From the NCBI GenBank assembly GCA_016875335.1, contig VGRO01000004.1, positions 32,158 to 96,157 on the forward strand: a DNA stretch of 64,000 bases. Direction: 5' to 3'. Position numbers and translations under genes: made by a program. Source of the stretch: Deltaproteobacteria bacterium. Lineage in GTDB: Bacteria > Myxococcota_A > UBA9042. The notes under the pieces were generated by a model. That model saw nothing but the letters and a program-made list of their open reading frames with translations, was not told the origin of the DNA and did no database searches. Below are positions 45,215-60,295 of this stretch, one piece after another. Within the stretch, counting starts at the first letter, position 1. Every line of letters starts with the position of its first letter.

Positions 45215-45392
45215 GGAGCCTGTCGGACTATCGTCCGACAGGCTCCGTGGTGGTTGCGATCGGGGCAGCGACCAAGAACTGCCTGAAGTAAATTCAGGCA
45301 GTTTCGGTCGCTGGCAGGCCGCAGCCGCGGCCTGCCTAGGAGCCTGTCGGCCAGAAACTGCCGATTCTGGCATTTCGCCGACAGGCTCCTAG
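45215..45392. repeat. cluster of four perfect hairpins/palindromes in the xerC-yaeQ divergent intergenic region
   Basis: GGAGCCTGTCGGAC-TATC-GTCCGACAGGCTCC (45215-45246). AACTGCCTGAA-GTAAA-TTCAGGCAGTT (45276-45302). GGCAGGCCGC-AGCC-GCGGCCTGCC (45312-45335). CTAGGAGCCTGTCGGC...25 nt...GCCGACAGGCTCCTAG (45336-45392). Confidence 0.7.
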
Positions 45393-45434: not shown

Positions 45435-45983
45435 GTGTCCACGCCGTTTCGCTGCCAAATCCGCCTCGTCCTTTCGGACCTCGACCGCAACGTGTTCGCA
45501 CAGCGCACGGTGGCGATGGCGCAGTTTCCCGACGAGCCCGATCAGCACGTGCTGTTGCGGTTCCTGGCGTGGGTGTGGTTCTACGACGAGGCGCTGCAGG
45601 ACGGCCAGGGTTTCCTCGACCAGACCCAGGCCGACCTGTGGGCCCAGGATCTGACCGGTGCACTGACGCTGTGGATCGAGTGCGGGCCGCCGCCGCTCAA
45701 GCGCCTGTGCAAGGCGCTGGGCCGATCGCGGACCGCCCGGTTCATTGCGCTGTGCGGCACCGAAAGCGAGGCCCGGGACCTGCGCAAGGCCTTGCGCGCC
45801 GAACGGCCGCGGCACCTCGATCGCGTCGAACTGTATTTCGTCGACAGCGAATTCCTGGATTGGTTGGAGAGCCACGGCCGCCGCAACATGGACTGGACCG
45901 CCACCTTGAGCGACGGCACGCTGTACCTGGACTGCGACGGCCACACCCACCAGTGCCTTTTGCACGCGGTCGCGGTTGCATGA
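45435..45983 (+). CDS. yaeQ: YaeQ family protein
   Basis: N-terminus ...RCQIRLVLSDLDRNVF...HVLLRFLAWVWFYDE... matches the YaeQ pattern (ATIYKAxLxLSDxDRxxY...RLLAWAxxxDE); 182 aa. Confidence 0.8.
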   Translation: MSTPFRCQIRLVLSDLDRNVFAQRTVAMAQFPDEPDQHVLLRFLAWVWFYDEALQDGQGFLDQTQADLWAQDLTGALTLWIECGPPPLKRLCKALGRSRTARFIALCGTESEARDLRKALRAERPRHLDRVELYFVDSEFLDWLESHGRRNMDWTATLSDGTLYLDCDGHTHQCLLHAVAVA

Positions 45984-46002: not shown

Positions 46003-47187
46003 ATGAACGAGATCGTGTTCTTCCTCGAACGCCGCGAGGCCACCTACCTGGCGCGCCTGCGGGCGCTGGTCGACATCAACAGCGGCCTGGACAATCCGGC
46101 GGGCCGCGACCGCGTGCTCGACCACCTGGAAATCGGCTACAAGACCCTGGGGTTTTCCTGCGAGCGCGTGCAGCGCCCGGGCGACATGACCCACCTGGTG
46201 GCGCGCCGCCCGTCGACCAAGCCGGGGGCGACCAAGGTGTTGATCCTCGGCCACTTCGACACCGTGTACGATTCGACCAGTCCGTTTCAGACCTTCACCG
46301 AACAGGGCCCGTGGCTGGCCGGCCCCGGTGTCGGCGACATGAAAGGCGGACTGGTGGTGACGCAGGCGGCGTTGGACGCGCTGTACCATGTCGGCCACCT
46401 CGGCGATTTCGACTGGGTGTGCTGCCACAACGCCGACGAGGAGATCCAGTCGCCGACGTCGCGCGACCTCATCGAGCAGTGCGCCGCCGACCGCGACCTG
46501 TGCCTGGACTTCGAGATCGGCCGCAAGACCGGCGCTGTGGTGCGATCGCGATCGGGCGTCGGTCGGTTCTTCGTAACCGTGCACGGCAGGAGCGCGCACG
46601 CCGGCATGGACCACAGCGTCGGCGTCAACGCCATTGTCGGCCTGTCCAGGATCATCGTGGAGCTGGCGGAACTGACCGACCCGGCGCGCGGTACCACCGT
46701 CAACGTCGGCGTCGTCAAGGGCGGCACCAAGCGCAACGTCGTTCCCGACGAAGCCAAGGCTGAAGTGGACGTGCGCGTCCAGTCGATCGAAGAGGGCGAG
46801 CGGGTCGAGCGCCGGATCCGCGAACTGTGCGGCGGCGAGCCGGTGCCGGGGGCTCGCGTGGAGCTGCTGGGCGGCATCGGCCGGCCGCCGTGGCAACGCA
46901 ACCCGCTGTGCGACAGGTTGATTGCCCACTTCCAGCGCGTCGCCGACGAGCATGGCCTCGCGCTCGGCGCCGAAGACACCGGCGGCGGGTCGGATGCCAA
47001 CTTCACGGCGGCGCTCGGCATCCCGACCATCGACGGCCTGGGGCCGGTCGGCGAGAAACCGCACACCTTCGACGAGCGCATCCAGCGCCATTCGGTGGTC
47101 GAGCGCGCCAAGCTGGTAGCGCTGGCACTGCTGGCCTACAAGCCCGACCGCGACGGCACGCCGGTGGATCCCGGCGAGGTCAACTGA
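46003..47187 (+). CDS. M20-family metallopeptidase (carboxypeptidase G2/ArgE/DapE-like)
   Basis: Metal-binding motifs: ILGHFDTVY; GPGVGDMKGG; HNADEEIQS; HGRSAHAGMDHSVGVNAI. Confidence 0.8.
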   Translation: MNEIVFFLERREATYLARLRALVDINSGLDNPAGRDRVLDHLEIGYKTLGFSCERVQRPGDMTHLVARRPSTKPGATKVLILGHFDTVYDSTSPFQTFTEQGPWLAGPGVGDMKGGLVVTQAALDALYHVGHLGDFDWVCCHNADEEIQSPTSRDLIEQCAADRDLCLDFEIGRKTGAVVRSRSGVGRFFVTVHGRSAHAGMDHSVGVNAIVGLSRIIVELAELTDPARGTTVNVGVVKGGTKRNVVPDEAKAEVDVRVQSIEEGERVERRIRELCGGEPVPGARVELLGGIGRPPWQRNPLCDRLIAHFQRVADEHGLALGAEDTGGGSDANFTAALGIPTIDGLGPVGEKPHTFDERIQRHSVVERAKLVALALLAYKPDRDGTPVDPGEVN

Positions 47188-47205
47188 CAACCCCGCACCG
47201 CGCCT

Positions 47206-49590
47206 TTGGTTTGTGACGGTCCGTTTGCGCGCGCGGTCGCAGCCGCCAATACTGCCCGAGGACCCGCGCCGCCCCCGCCGGGAACCGCCAAGGAACGCGT
47301 GGCCACGGTCCTCTTGCTGCAACCGCCGATTGTGCTGCACGGCGCGTTCATCGACTACCCGTACTTTGCGAGCCTGGGCCTGTGGCAAGCGGCGGCGGCG
47401 CTGCGCGCGGCGGGCCACGCGGTGCAGGTGCTGGACGCGTTGTGCCAGCCGTCGTCGGGCCTGATCGCCGAAACCAAGGATTTGATTCGCCTGGGCATTC
47501 CGTTTTCAGGGTTCGTCGCAAAGCTGCCGCAGCCGGCTCCCGATGTGGTGGTGGTGGGCCACAGCCCATGGCTGCGCTCGCGGCCCGCAGCGGCGGAACT
47601 GCGCAAGCTCGCCCTGCACCTGCATCAGAAGTGGCCGGGCTCGCACCTGGTGCTCGCCGATTGCGACGTCGGCGGCATGCACTACATCGAGTGGGGAGAG
47701 GCCGAACTCGACGACCTCGGCTTTTCGTGGGGCTGCAAGTACGAGGCGGATGTGGCGTTGCCGGCGCTGGTGGCGCAGTTGGCGGCTGGCCAGGTGCCCG
47801 CGTCCCGCGTGGTGGTCGGCCCGCCGGGCGACGAGGCCTTGGACGGCCTGCCGCTGCCAGCCTACGACCTCGTGGACGTCGACGCCTTTGAGCGGTTCGC
47901 GGGCCGCGTCGCCAACGCCCGCCACAAGCAGGAGATTTTCGACCTGACCCCGCCGCTCATGGCGGTCAAGACCAGCCGCGGCTGCGTGTACCAGTGCAAC
48001 TTCTGCACGAGCAACCCTTGGCAGCGCGCGGGGTTGGCGGGCAAGGCCTACCGGCGCCACAGCCCAGCACAGCTCGACGAGCACGCGCGCTTGCTGGCGG
48101 AACGCTACGGTGTGCGGCGCTGGGTGGTGCTCGACGAACTGGTCAACGTCCATCCGGGCCACTTCGACGCGCTGCTCGACGTCGCCGAACGCCACGGCTT
48201 GCGCCTCGATTTCCCCAACGGCATGCGCGCCGACCGGCTGACCGAGGCCCAGGTGGCGCGGCTGGCCCGGTTGTGCCCGCTGCTGTCGATCTCGGCGGAA
48301 TCGGCCAACGCCCGCGTGGCCAACGAGGTCATCGGCAAGCGCTTCGACCTGTCGGCGACCGAGCGGGTGGCTGGCTGGTGTCGCAGCCACGGCCTGCGCC
48401 TGGTGGTGCACTGGATGATCGGCCAGCCGAGCGAGACCAAGGCCGAGATCAAGCGCACGCTGCAGACCGCGTGGGACCTCTACGAGGGGTTCGGGGCGGA
48501 GCCGCTGGTGCAATTCGCCACGCCGATCCTCGGCACGGTCCTGCACAAGACGGCGACCGACCGGCAACTGTGGACGACGCGCGAGGATCGCGACATCGGG
48601 CCGCTTTTCCAAGGCCGGCCAGTGCTGCGCGGACCCGATTGGGGCCCGGCAGACCTATGGGCCTACAAGCGCGTGTTCGAGACCCGCCTGGCCATGCACC
48701 GGCCGCGCAAGGTCATCGTCAACACGACGTATGTGTGCAACAACCACTGCGTGTTTTGCGCGACCGGCAACCGCAGCGACTGGCACGGCGACACCGACAA
48801 GCAGATCGCCTTTTTGGCCGAACGACGCGCCCAGGGGTTCGACCTGTGCGACTTCGACGGCGGCGAGCCCACCACCAACCCGCGGCTTTTCGAGCTCATC
48901 CGCGCCGCGCGGGGCCTGGGCTATCAGCAGGTCAACCTGACCACCAATGGCCGGATGATGGCGCTGCCGCGCAATGCGGAAAAGGTGGTGCGATCCGGCA
49001 TCACCTCGCTCTTGGTGTCGCTGCACGGCCCCAACGAAGCCGTGCACGAAGAAAACGTGCAGGCCAAGGGCGCGTTCGCCCAGACGATCTCGGGCATCCG
49101 CAATGCCCGGCCGCTGTGCGACGCGACAGGCGTCGAGTTCGGCGTCAACGTCACCTTGACCAAGGTCAATACACCGGTGCTCTTGGAGTACGGCCAGCTT
49201 CTGGTCGACCTCGGCGTCCGGCTGTGCAATGTGCAGTTCTTGACGCCGTTTGGCCGGGCGAGCGCCGAGTGCCAGCCGGACCCGGCGGTCGCCGCGCAGT
49301 TGGTCATGCGGCTCATCGACCAGTTCGGCGACAAGATCCGGTTTCAGGTCATCAATCTTCCGCTCTGCTACCTGCCCGGCTACGAGGAATTCGGGCTGAG
49401 CGACATCGGCAAGCTGCAGCGCCATATGATTTTTGTGTCGATGGACGACGTCAACCTGTTCGACTACCTGCAGAGCCGCCGCCGCCACGAGAAAGCGTGC
49501 GAGAGCTGCCCGATGGCGGTCGCGTGCGAGGGCTTCTACTACTGGCCCGACCAATGGAAGGACGAGGCGCGCGCGCGTTGGGGCGACTGA
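47206..49590 (+). CDS. fused double radical-SAM enzyme: N-terminal B12-binding-like domain plus radical-SAM core 1 (CVYQCNFC), then radical-SAM core 2 (CNNHCVFC) with C-terminal Cys cluster (SPASM/twitch-like)
   Basis: Two CX3CX2C motifs: SRGCVYQCNFCTS (about aa 262) and VNTTYVCNNHCVFCATG (about aa 515). The N-terminal VATVLLLQPPIVLHGAFIDYPYFASLGLWQAAAALRAAGH resembles a class-B rSAM B12 domain. C-terminus ...KACESCPMAVACEGFYYW. Confidence 0.75.
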   Translation: MVCDGPFARAVAAANTARGPAPPPPGTAKERVATVLLLQPPIVLHGAFIDYPYFASLGLWQAAAALRAAGHAVQVLDALCQPSSGLIAETKDLIRLGIPFSGFVAKLPQPAPDVVVVGHSPWLRSRPAAAELRKLALHLHQKWPGSHLVLADCDVGGMHYIEWGEAELDDLGFSWGCKYEADVALPALVAQLAAGQVPASRVVVGPPGDEALDGLPLPAYDLVDVDAFERFAGRVANARHKQEIFDLTPPLMAVKTSRGCVYQCNFCTSNPWQRAGLAGKAYRRHSPAQLDEHARLLAERYGVRRWVVLDELVNVHPGHFDALLDVAERHGLRLDFPNGMRADRLTEAQVARLARLCPLLSISAESANARVANEVIGKRFDLSATERVAGWCRSHGLRLVVHWMIGQPSETKAEIKRTLQTAWDLYEGFGAEPLVQFATPILGTVLHKTATDRQLWTTREDRDIGPLFQGRPVLRGPDWGPADLWAYKRVFETRLAMHRPRKVIVNTTYVCNNHCVFCATGNRSDWHGDTDKQIAFLAERRAQGFDLCDFDGGEPTTNPRLFELIRAARGLGYQQVNLTTNGRMMALPRNAEKVVRSGITSLLVSLHGPNEAVHEENVQAKGAFAQTISGIRNARPLCDATGVEFGVNVTLTKVNTPVLLEYGQLLVDLGVRLCNVQFLTPFGRASAECQPDPAVAAQLVMRLIDQFGDKIRFQVINLPLCYLPGYEEFGLSDIGKLQRHMIFVSMDDVNLFDYLQSRRRHEKACESCPMAVACEGFYYWPDQWKDEARARWGD

Positions 49591-49612: not shown

Positions 49613-52009
49613 TCACGGCGCCTGGTACGCTGCGGCCGCGGGCAGCACCTTGGCGGCCTGGGCGCGCAAGACGAAAAACGACAGCTTGCGGCGGTCGTGC
49701 CAGGCCGGCGGCTGGTCCCATTTGTCCCAGGTGTAGTGCAGGACACCCTGCGCTGGGATGCGCCATGCCTTGCCCTTGCCATCGGCCGCCACCGCGGGCT
49801 GGGCCAGGGGCAGCGTGTCGCTCGGGTCGATCTCGGCCTCGCCGGTGCCGCCCAGGCTGGCGGCGACGATGCCGATGCCCTGCACGGTCGAGGTGTCGAC
49901 GGTGGCCGTGCTCTGGTTGGCGTGGTCGATGGCGCGCAGCGCGCTCGGGTCCGAGAACTGCAAAAGCGCCCAAGGAATCCGCAGTTCCATGACGCCAGTC
50001 TTGCGGTCGTACCAGAAGTGGCTGGCCGAGTTCTGCGCTTGGGACCCGGTGCGAAGCCGACCGGTTTGCTGGCCGAGCGAGGTGGCGAGCAGGTGAAACG
50101 CCGCCTTGCCGTCGGGCAACTTTTCGTGCCACGCGTAGTCGCCGTTGGTGCGGGTCTGGGCCAACAGCCACTGGCCCTTGTCGTTGGCGACGGTGCGGTA
50201 CGCCTGCCAAATCTGCTGGGTGCCCTGGCCGATGCCGAAAAGGTCGTAGGGTTGGTCCACCCACAGTTGCACGTCGCTGTCGCTGTGGATGCGCACCTGA
50301 AACTCGATGCGCCGCTCGGTTTGCAGCACGCCGACGGGGTCGAAGCGACTGTCGCCGCGCAGCGGATCGACGGTGTCCAGACCGATCACGTAGTCCACGC
50401 GATCCCACTGCACCTGGCCATCGCCGTCGGGGTCGAGGCTCTCGACACGCAGACGCAGGTGCAGGTAGCCGGCATCGTGGTCGACCGTGACGTCCTTGAG
50501 CGTGCGCATGGCGTCGAAGCCGTCGCCACGCGGCGACAACAGCGGAAACGTCTTGACCAACTGCGGCGCCTTGCCCGACCAGTCGTCCTGTTGTCCATCG
50601 ATCCGGTGGGCGCGCGTCGCCGCTTCTGGCAAGAGCGCCACGACACCAAAATGCTGATTCGGGTTCTGGGGGTTGTACCAAAGGCGTTGGCGATGTGCCG
50701 GCAACACCACCGGGCCCGTCAGCCACGATTCGCGGTACCACTGGTCCACCACGTCGCCAATCATCGCGCCGTGCAGGCCGGCCTGCGCCACCGTGCGCAA
50801 CGCGCGCAAGCTGGCCCAACCTTGCTCCAATTCGTTGTAGCCGCCATGGTTCAGGCCGCTGGGTGAGAAGTGCGCGCACCCGGGACTGGACGGGTGGCCG
50901 GTCTCCGCGACCAGAACGGCGAACTTGCCGTGGGCCGCGCGCAAGGCTTTCAGGTAGCCGAGCCACGGGTTGGGACCGTCGGCGTCGCTGGTCGCCGCGT
51001 ACTCGGGCTGGTGCATCACGAAATCGGGGTAATACGGAAAACTCTGGTAGGCCATGAACACGCCCGCCGAAAAACTGCCGCGGTACTCGACCGCGTTCAG
51101 GTCCAGTGTCTCGTACTCTTCGGCGCTGGCCGGGAACGGCTGCTCGGTGTAGTGCTTGATCGGATCGGTGGTCGGCCAATTGAGCCAGCCGACCGGCCGC
51201 TGCTGCCCGTAGCGCGCCTTTTCGGTGGCGACGACGAGGTCCATCAGTTCGACGATGAAGCCCTCGATGGCGCGGCCCGCAGGCAGGGCCACGAACTGGC
51301 CCCCAGGATGACCTTTTGGCGGGTGGCTGAGCGCCGTCTCGTGCAGAATCAGCGGATCCAACTCGCGGCCGATGAGCCACCCGAGCGTCCACGGCGAGAC
51401 GTCGGCGGTGTAGGTGCCAAACGCCCGGCCCCAGTTGCCGGGGTTGTCCTTCGATCCCGGTAAAATGGTTCGCCGGCCGTGGACGACATCGACCGCCTTG
51501 TCGATCTCGTCCTTGATCGCGGCGACCAGATTGGGGTGCAGATAGTCCTTGGCCAGGGCGGCCTGGGCGTCGTCGGCCGGGTCCTTGAGCCACGCACCCT
51601 GCAACAGGAACAACGGCCGCTTGGGGTGGTGCAGGTTCCATCGCCGCAGTTCCTGATAGAACTCAGGGCTTTGGATGGTCTTGACCCGCAGCGTATTGAC
51701 GCCCATTTCGCCCGCGGTCTCCAGCCAGCGGCGGATCTGCGCGCGGTCGGCGTCGTATTCGCCCGGGCTGCGGCCTGGCAGGGCGGTCGCGAAGTTCAAG
51801 CCATAAGGCCACAGCGGCTGCCAACTGCCGCCGTTTGCCGAGGCGTAGAACCCGTACTGGTCGGTGCGGAACTGGTAGCGGACGCTCACCGTCGCCGCCG
51901 AAAGGGCAGCGAGGTCGCCCAATTGCGGTGCCGCGTCGTCGTTGCAGCCGAGCACGCCCATCCACGCTGCCAGGACCACCGCCGTCGCCTTGCTTGCCCG
52001 CGTCGCCAT
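49613..52009 (-). CDS. putative glycoside-hydrolase-like (TIM-barrel) secreted lipoprotein
   Basis: Lipobox MATRASKATAVVLAAWMGVLGC. Central region with GH-like acid/aromatic patterns (GWLNWPTTDP; LVAETGHPSSPGCAH; NELEQGWASL). 798 aa; family assignment is uncertain. Confidence 0.5.
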   Translation of the reverse strand: MATRASKATAVVLAAWMGVLGCNDDAAPQLGDLAALSAATVSVRYQFRTDQYGFYASANGGSWQPLWPYGLNFATALPGRSPGEYDADRAQIRRWLETAGEMGVNTLRVKTIQSPEFYQELRRWNLHHPKRPLFLLQGAWLKDPADDAQAALAKDYLHPNLVAAIKDEIDKAVDVVHGRRTILPGSKDNPGNWGRAFGTYTADVSPWTLGWLIGRELDPLILHETALSHPPKGHPGGQFVALPAGRAIEGFIVELMDLVVATEKARYGQQRPVGWLNWPTTDPIKHYTEQPFPASAEEYETLDLNAVEYRGSFSAGVFMAYQSFPYYPDFVMHQPEYAATSDADGPNPWLGYLKALRAAHGKFAVLVAETGHPSSPGCAHFSPSGLNHGGYNELEQGWASLRALRTVAQAGLHGAMIGDVVDQWYRESWLTGPVVLPAHRQRLWYNPQNPNQHFGVVALLPEAATRAHRIDGQQDDWSGKAPQLVKTFPLLSPRGDGFDAMRTLKDVTVDHDAGYLHLRLRVESLDPDGDGQVQWDRVDYVIGLDTVDPLRGDSRFDPVGVLQTERRIEFQVRIHSDSDVQLWVDQPYDLFGIGQGTQQIWQAYRTVANDKGQWLLAQTRTNGDYAWHEKLPDGKAAFHLLATSLGQQTGRLRTGSQAQNSASHFWYDRKTGVMELRIPWALLQFSDPSALRAIDHANQSTATVDTSTVQGIGIVAASLGGTGEAEIDPSDTLPLAQPAVAADGKGKAWRIPAQGVLHYTWDKWDQPPAWHDRRKLSFFVLRAQAAKVLPAAAAYQAP

Positions 52010-60123: not shown

Positions 60124-60195
60124 GGGCGAATAGCTCAGCGGTAGAGCGGCGCCTTTACACGGCGTTGGCCGCAGGTTCGATCCCTGCTTCGCCCA
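60124..60195 (+). tRNA. tRNA-Val (anticodon UAC)
   Basis: Cloverleaf folded by hand: acceptor GGGCGAA/TTCGCCC; D-arm GCTC-AGCGGTA-GAGC; anticodon arm GCGCC-TTTACAC-GGCGT; T-arm GCAGG-TTCGATC-CCTGC; discriminator A; no encoded CCA. Confidence 0.85.
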
Positions 60196-60221: not shown

Positions 60222-60295
60222 GGAGTGGTAGTTCAGTCGGTTAGAACGCTGGCCTGTCAAGCCAGAGGCCGCGGGTTCAAGTCCCGTCCGCTCCG
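60222..60295 (+). tRNA. tRNA-Asp (anticodon GUC)
   Basis: GGAGTGGTAGTTCAGTCGGTTAGAACGCTGGCCTGTCAAGCCAGAGGCCGCGGGTTCAAGTCCCGTCCGCTCCG closely resembles canonical bacterial tRNA-Asp. Anticodon loop CTGTCAA. Confidence 0.85.

Follow-up and report, generated by a model that had tools for sequence, protein, structure and literature searches.

A gene in a 64,000-nucleotide stretch of a Deltaproteobacteria bacterium genome (assembly GCA_016875335.1, contig VGRO01000004.1, positions 32,158 to 96,157 of the forward strand; hereafter the window) encodes two complete radical S-adenosylmethionine (rSAM) cores in one polypeptide. The protein is a member of an uncharacterised, widespread family in which a B12 (cobalamin)-type rSAM module is fused to an rSAM module of the HxsC type, known from His-Xaa-Ser (Hxs) maturation clusters. 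On balance, comparisons of sequences and gene neighbourhoods lean towards a functional fusion enzyme that would act in trans as a two-step maturase of an extended Hxs-type system. The family ties the four-gene HXS antiphage system to larger, unstudied multi-rSAM clusters encoding (His-Gly-Ser)n-Trp precursors with up to >70 repeats, and thus provides a handle on HxsC-type chemistry (a +8 Da modification) and on what may be a new class of repeat proteins carrying heavy modification. The window itself holds only an orphan enzyme, and the striking multi-rSAM and (HGS)n-W material sits in related genomes; the value of the window copy is therefore more modest, and its partners are to be sought elsewhere in the genome.

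Architecture and Conservation of the Fused Protein

The open reading frame (ORF) at 47206..49590 on the forward strand is present without interruption. A sequence-only reading of the window had taken its product as a 794-residue protein initiated at TTG 47206, which proved wrong. Homologues are about 763-770 residues long and all have their N-termini at the equivalent of GTG 47299; in relatives, in-frame stops close the reading frame upstream of this point, identifying 47206-47298 as non-coding spacer. A Shine-Dalgarno-like AAGGAA is found ahead of the GTG at 47290-47295. Because translation starts at GTG 47299, the protein has 763 residues (plus stop) and the spacer behind the upstream M20 peptidase gene measures 111 nt rather than the 18 nt first given, whereas the 19-nt gap reported between yaeQ and the M20 gene stands. 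The features are collected in Table 1.

Table 1. Features of the fused gene and its upstream neighbours (window positions; residues in 763-residue numbering)
Feature	Position	Strand	Evidence or remark
yaeQ	45435-45983	+	Pfam YaeQ match; context only, outside the system
M20 peptidase gene	about 46003-47187	+	Pfam M20 match; context only, outside the system
Intergenic spacer between M20 and rSAM genes, 111 nt	47188..47298	+	
Fused double rSAM coding sequence	47299..49590	+	ORF; homologue N-termini; upstream stops in relatives; dN/dS 0.12
N-terminal Rossmann-like cobalamin-binding-type domain, residues 1-175	47299..47823	+	Invariant D19-Y20-P21, G126/H128
rSAM core 1, residues 176-447	47824..48639	+	CX3CX2C = C229/C233/C236
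Inter-core linker helix, residues 448-467	48640..48699	+	Helix 450-466 in AlphaFold model, high pLDDT
rSAM core 2, residues 468-689	48700..49365	+	CX3CX2C = C480/C484/C487
C-terminal auxiliary-cluster domain (predicted), residues 690-746	49366..49536	+	C690 ... C734-X2-C737-X5-C743-x-G-F

That the polypeptide carries two real rSAM cores, as first proposed from the letters of the sequence, is established by Pfam, NCBIfam, invariant Cys triads and an AlphaFold model. Pfam recognises two separate Radical_SAM (PF04055) stretches (100.7 bits against a cut-off of 29.5); the second is core 1, and the best, at 505-636 in the 794-residue numbering, is core 2. The Cys motifs quoted earlier are all in place: CVYQCNFC at nt 47983-48006, CNNHCVFC at nt 48736-48759 and CESCPMAVAC at nt 49498-49527. 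NCBIfam matches form two non-overlapping blocks, one for each half of the protein and none at the curated cut-off. The N half resembles B12-binding/rSAM families (ladderane-cluster lipid protein, BzaD, AprD4, HpnJ), and the C half resembles HxsC4 (the best match), NirJ2, AhbD, HxsC (the fourth), MoaA and PqqE.

The single-chain model (AlphaFold2) is confident, with pLDDT 93 and pTM 0.90, and shows four parts. Residues ~1-450 give fold matches to AprD4 (26.6), TsrM (25.4), MgmA (25.3) and CysS (24.9), as well as to TokK and OxsB, so that core 1 has an AprD4/TsrM/CysS-like fold. The first ~175 residues alone match stand-alone cobalamin-binding domains (10-11.5); the N-terminal B12-binding-type Rossmann domain that had been proposed is thus borne out at the level of the fold. 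Residues ~468-750 match Viperin, SuiB, SkfB, GDGT-MAS, BlsE, anSME and MoaA (19-23), giving core 2 a BlsE/SuiB/viperin-like fold. A profile search of Protein Data Bank sequences returned AprD4 for core 1 (2.4e-23) and BlsE (1.3e-16) and PqqE (7e-14) for core 2. From the fold matches and this search, the order of the protein is therefore Rossmann domain, core 1, linker helix, core 2 and four-Cys domain. Core 2 also contains an invariant GGEPT at nt 48859-48873, which supplies the GGE SAM-binding motif, and both cores combine their CX3CX2C triad with a partial TIM barrel.

The C-terminal Cys cluster had been read as a SPASM/twitch domain. The cluster itself is there, but the SPASM assignment fails. 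The SPASM signature comprises seven Cys in the pattern CX9-15GX4C ... CX2CX5CX3C ... C and two auxiliary clusters. By comparison, the tail has four invariant Cys (C690, C734, C737 and C743) with the spacing C-X43-C-X2-C-X5-C; SPASM (PF13186) gave no match to the protein, and there is no Cys at +4 after C743 (sequence CEGFY). With only four conserved Cys and no PF13186 match, the tail is therefore not a canonical SPASM domain. In the model it contains a beta-hairpin (708-719) and a helix (720-725), features that would fit a twitch-type, truncated SPASM domain, and it would probably hold one auxiliary [4Fe-4S] cluster, as predicted from its Cys residues.

The fused architecture recurs widely. 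A word-indexed search yielded 254 homologues, and of the top 120 almost every one is full length. In a scan that took one genome for each species, 376 candidate loci were obtained; among the best 80, nearly all span the whole protein, with three at a contig end or only partially matched. An uninterrupted fused architecture is found in >115 full-length homologous clusters, and full-length members occur in at least 80 species. An exhaustive HMMER search of 1.84 billion representatives returned 233 proteins at E<=1e-30, ~60 of which (50%-identity clusters) are full-length fusions with 27-44% identity, while the remainder include N-half-only (~470 residues) and C-half-only (~300-330 residues) forms. 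In an alignment of 53 sequences, both Cys triads, the GGEPT of core 2, C690/C734/C737/C743 and D19-Y20-P21 are invariant. The ratio of nonsynonymous to synonymous substitution rates (dN/dS) against the nearest relative is 0.12, indicating purifying selection.

Variations on this architecture also occur. In some genomes two full-length fused paralogues lie next to each other, and in long fused forms of 1031-1102 residues, the double-rSAM body is extended by HAD (PF00702) or SAM-methyltransferase domains. Paralogue pairs and/or long forms are found in L081 (4691-7696 and 9100-11541) and in P0046, P0047, P0049, P0053 and P0066.

Relationship to HxsC and Hxs-Type Gene Clusters

HXS is an antiphage defence system of four genes, HxsD-HxsB-HxsC-HxsA, in which HxsB, HxsC and HxsD mature the periplasmic protein HxsA, with a +8 Da change on an SHRSS motif (PMC13128918). 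HxsC binds HxsD, and 99.7% of HXS systems occur in Pseudomonadota (PMC13128918). With the operon on an Aeromonas salmonicida plasmid as the canonical reference, BLASTP aligned the C half of the window protein collinearly with full-length HxsC (22% identity over 284 residues, E 6e-10). In this alignment, PLCYLP of the window protein pairs with PHCHLP, and CESCPMAVACEGFY with CDDCASKAVCCGFF, so that the two proteins share the four-Cys motif NxPxC(Y/H)LP ... CxxCxxxxxCxGF. Because its C-terminal motif aligns with that of canonical HxsC, the tail can be identified as an HxsC hallmark.

The sequence-only reading had described the protein without any family link to Hxs clusters; this link emerged from gene neighbourhoods. 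Blind all-against-all clustering of flanking ORFs picked out two genes, a further rSAM gene and a small ORF, as repeated neighbours of distant family members. NCBIfam identifies them as HxsB (473.6 and 547.5 bits against a cut-off of 370) and HxsD (58.9 against 50). In Polyangia, both adjoin the fused gene (L077, with a 12-nt gap; L069, L070, L039). Four contigs of acidobacterial type (L083, L085, L086, L088) carry the cluster rSAM616-rSAM627-rSAM345-fused gene-rSAM321-HxsD (PF27806)-80-residue protein-HxsB on one strand, with 3-nt gaps or overlaps. The cluster of L084 is similar, with additional B12-rSAM, methyltransferase, glycosyltransferase and carbamoyltransferase genes and an HxS peptide with an HGSHNSW end. 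Across the neighbourhoods, up to six extra rSAM genes are present, whose best matches are HxsC4 and HxsC, below cut-off.

Hxs genes were counted within 10 kb of the fused gene in 49 members with <50% identity and in 36 loci of the window's own clade, clade A. Among the distant members, HxsA, B or D was present in 17 of 49, and one of these or an HxsC-like paralogue in 34 of 49. In a neighbour-joining tree, Hxs-linked members appear in every deep branch and the solitary clade A is derived; the deep-branch members in or near Hxs clusters come from Acidobacteriota, Polyangia and others. An apparent case of a clade-A protein (P0024) on an Hxs contig was rejected, as the fused gene of L088 is of the acidobacterial type (39-40% identical).

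A regular-expression scan found ORFs composed of a leader, (His-Gly-Ser)n and a terminal Trp in 14 loci, with 10 to >70 repeats; in L083, such a gene lies 6 kb from the operon. These precursor-like ORFs, with a leader of ~60 residues, include L083 3775-4164 (-), L069 12392-12865 (-), L051 171-863, L064 2-544, L070 5099-5929 (-) and L076 3-350. As Gly-X-Y triplets, the repeats match Pfam Collagen (39 bits). Several same-strand clusters are very large (L083 5222-15627, L085 1831-16970, L084 2025-22322 and L088 126-11533), with 6-9 rSAM genes plus HxsB. The large clusters also encode tandem HxsD-like small proteins of ~150 and ~80 residues, both with an EFxN(E/F)(L/A)L motif, and a cobalamin adenosyltransferase gene is located near the clusters of L085 and L086.

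The Solitary Gene of Clade A

Clade A comprises metagenome-assembled genomes (MAGs) of freshwater Myxococcota with fused-gene identities of 60-88%; the 36 loci counted, the window included, have identities of 58% or more. In most of these genomes, the fused gene is monocistronic, divergent from a TPR/HEAT gene and convergent with the downstream gene. Clustering of the flanks gave no functional clue from the clade-A neighbours (TPR/HEAT, MopE-repeat, OmpA, DUF4398). An HxsA, B or D gene or an HxsC-like paralogue lies within 10 kb in 3 of the 36 loci; in two of them (L018 and L019), HxsB is ~9 kb from the fused gene. Many Myxococcales MAGs carry HxsB homologues with 80-95% identity to that of L019.

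In one MAG, CANMNA01 (GCA_947499075.1), the fused gene stands alone on contig 16 (L032) and is 79% identical to that of the window, while contig 2 (L089) carries rSAM658-rSAM422-HxsD-81-residue protein-HxsB. The contig-2 genes are orthologous to those of the acidobacterial operon, leaving out the fused gene, with identities of 70-72% for HxsB, 50% for HxsD, 52% for the 80-residue protein, 49-51% for r432/r345 and 34% for r656/r627. A further contig, L090, has an Hxs-like cluster as in L089 with a PseudoU_synth_2 gene ~10 kb away; in L087, a PseudoU_synth_2 gene is present 9 kb upstream of the fused gene. This placement suggests loose synteny of the Hxs-like cluster and the fused gene at 10-20 kb. 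The parsimonious reading is that the fused gene left the cluster and still serves it in trans.

Directly after HxsB in clade-A-type Hxs-like clusters (L019 19731-21125 on the reverse strand; L090 11569-12928), there are two paralogous signal-peptide proteins of ~210-250 residues that look like outer-membrane beta-barrels. Both end in ...YSW, and a terminal Ser-Trp is common to these proteins and to the (HGS)n-W and HGSHNSW peptides.

Proposed Function and Alternative Explanations

The ancestral home of the family would be an extended Hxs cluster with HxsD, HxsB, several HxsC-like rSAM enzymes and a leader-(His-Gly-Ser)n-Trp precursor; given such an origin, the most likely substrate would be a His/Ser-repeat protein or peptide. 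The enzyme is predicted to hold three [4Fe-4S] clusters, one in each core and one in the auxiliary four-Cys domain. In each core, SAM bound to that core's own cluster would give rise to a 5'-deoxyadenosyl radical, and cleavage of SAM at both cores would allow two different radical steps in one polypeptide. The most natural reading is that these would be consecutive steps on one substrate. The HxsC-like core, probably with the help of HxsD, would modify the His/Ser repeat units in an HxsC-type reaction, and the N-terminal core would add a second modification, which may be a C-methylation with cobalamin or an AprD4-like H-abstraction without it. AprD4 is a diol dehydratase that is not known to require cobalamin; as the closest structure, it has the same architecture as the N half, and cobalamin dependence of the fused protein is putative. 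In the window lineage, the enzyme would presumably act in trans, serving a cluster that lies elsewhere in the genome.

Several results weigh against an Hxs maturase, or against its cobalamin-type half. There are no HxsA, HxsB, HxsD or other rSAM genes in the 64-kb window, so that the Hxs link is indirect for this genome; within clade A, only 2 of 36 loci have an Hxs gene within 10 kb, and 15 of the 49 distant members have neither Hxs genes nor paralogues there. The C half scores far below the curated cut-offs for both HxsC (TIGR03977; 71.4 against 267.9) and HxsC4 (NF038332; 112.2 against 500). The single in-trans example, CANMNA01, rests on MAG binning, which may mix organisms. As for class B (cobalamin-dependent) membership, the arrangement of a Rossmann domain before the core holds as first proposed, but the families themselves do not support the assignment: PF02310 gave no match to the fused protein at E<=0.01 and is recorded for a minority of homologues, and class-B families of NCBIfam score no higher than 53-56 bits, with cut-offs at 360-500. 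Finally, Rfam found no cobalamin riboswitch in the 64-kb window.

The solitary position of the gene would also suit a neofunctionalised stand-alone enzyme, a clade-A fusion acting on an unrelated substrate (a lipid, a cofactor or another protein) encoded elsewhere; we regard this as the main alternative, though an unlikely one. It would account for a monocistronic gene that lacks an Hxs neighbour in 34 of the 36 clade-A loci, and it draws on weak resemblances of the N half to lipid-associated B12-rSAM families (TIGR04072, HpnJ) and of the C half to GDGT-MAS/Tes. Yet the invariant residues and the whole architecture are common to clade A and to the Hxs-embedded members, and an Hxs-like cluster, either 9 kb away in cis or on a separate contig, persists in at least three clade-A-related genomes. 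Scores for the lipid families fall far short of the cut-off (55.7 against 360), and there are no conserved lipid-synthesis genes nearby. On these last two counts, a lipid-synthase reading (Tes/GDGT-MAS, ladderane B12-rSAM) was down-weighted.

The immediate neighbourhood had instead suggested that the yaeQ, M20 and rSAM genes form an operon, and that one peptide-like substrate would be processed jointly by the M20 peptidase and the double rSAM enzyme. The genes do share a strand with short gaps (19 nt and 111 nt), and no terminator-like site lies between them; more precisely, no inverted repeat, promoter-like or terminator-like site was found in the 111-nt spacer, and a promoter/terminator scan gave nothing informative. 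Co-occurrence decides against the operon. When all window neighbours were compared by tblastn with 82 related loci, YaeQ, the M20 peptidase, an XerC/D-like recombinase and a 798-residue downstream ORF were found beside the fused gene only in the four closest genomes (L001/L003, L004, L017), where the fused orthologue is >=81% identical; they are absent from every locus at <=79% identity (~80 loci). The linkage is therefore recent synteny and not conserved. In addition, the fused gene is monocistronic in most clade-A genomes, and the search for a precursor agreed with the earlier failure to see one nearby: there is no HxS-repeat or His-rich ORF in the 64-kb window, and neither the 111-nt nor the 23-nt spacer has room for one. 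We thus consider a common peptide pathway improbable; within the Hxs maturase explanation, the position behind yaeQ and M20 is taken as a lineage-specific accident. That the double core is an artefact, either because a missed stop or frameshift fused two neighbouring genes or because the gene is a decaying pseudogene with one dead core, has almost no probability left. Split N-half-only and C-half-only proteins do occur among distant representatives, but the uninterrupted architecture in >115 full-length clusters and 80 loci, the invariance of both Cys triads, the dN/dS of 0.12 and the single-chain pTM of 0.90 all confirm one uninterrupted fusion, as the sequence-only reading had it. Frameshift or misassembly is excluded.

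Beyond the trans-acting Hxs maturase proposed here, a bolder and distinctly more tentative possibility is an undescribed 'extended Hxs' pathway in Myxococcota, Acidobacteriota and other phyla, to which the enzyme would belong as a bifunctional member acting in trans. In such a pathway, 5-8 rSAM enzymes would remodel a collagen-like leader-(Gly-Ser-His)n-Trp protein, with the fusion coupling a cobalamin-type step (e.g., C-methylation of His or Ser) to an HxsC-type step. If true, this would make the protein the first double-radical catalyst of class-B::HxsC type. On the analogy of HXS, the fused enzyme might also belong to a new antiphage or metal-binding polymer system located in the envelope.

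Comparison With Known Systems

HxsC4 is the best and HxsC the fourth family match of the C half, and relatives of the fused protein sit beside HxsB, HxsD and HxS-repeat precursors. Unlike HxsC4 and HxsC, the fused protein has an extra 450-residue N-terminal B12-type rSAM module. At the level of the cluster, HXS consists of four genes in the order D-B-C-A, whereas the fused-gene clusters contain 5-8 rSAM genes and a leader-(HGS)n-W precursor; around the fused gene of the window, the adjacent HxsB, HxsD and HxsA of HXS are not present. The substrates differ as well. HxsA of HXS carries a peptidoglycan-binding domain (PMC13128918), and that of A. salmonicida consists of HRSHRSHSSHRSH... plus a C-terminal domain, unlike the leader-(HGS)n-W precursors.

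Among class B enzymes (AprD4, TsrM, MgmA, CysS, TokK, OxsB), none has a second rSAM core, and AprD4 has the same combination of Rossmann domain and rSAM core as the N half. With respect to the SPASM/twitch maturases (SuiB, SkfB, anSME, PqqE) and BlsE, the four Cys of the fused tail amount to one cluster's worth, compared with the seven-Cys, two-cluster arrangement. To our knowledge, single polypeptides with two complete rSAM cores are rare, with FbiC as the textbook case. FbiC (FO synthase, a CofG-CofH fusion) shows that one chain can contain two rSAM domains (PMC11917521), and both FbiC and the present family occur fused and split. The resemblance is architectural only, with no specific sequence relationship: no CofG or CofH family is among the 25 best NCBIfam matches listed, and no homology test aimed at CofG/CofH was made. 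FbiC is also without cobalamin-type and auxiliary-cluster domains, and acts on small molecules (tyrosine and a pyrimidine). In the searchable literature, no paper was found on the fusion of B12-type and HxsC-type modules, on the extended clusters or on (HGS)n precursors.

Other Features of the Window

PADLOC returned only generic viperin-like rSAM matches. Downstream of the fused gene, the 798-residue ORF (49613-52009, reverse strand) begins like a lipoprotein (…VLGC…) and matches no Pfam or NCBIfam family; its counterparts in the closest relatives are 65-86% identical. Between this ORF and the rSAM gene, L001 has a VanW-domain gene that is absent from the window. Upstream, where the XerC/D-like recombinase gene and yaeQ diverge, the intergenic region contains two perfect hairpins (45215-45246 and 45336-45392) built from one 12-mer, GGAGCCTGTCGG. 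All four copies of the 12-mer in the 64 kb lie there, against 0.67 expected by chance, and the hairpins may be an operator or a small palindromic element. Two adjacent tRNA genes on the forward strand (60124-60195 and 60222-60295) are the sole Rfam matches in the window.

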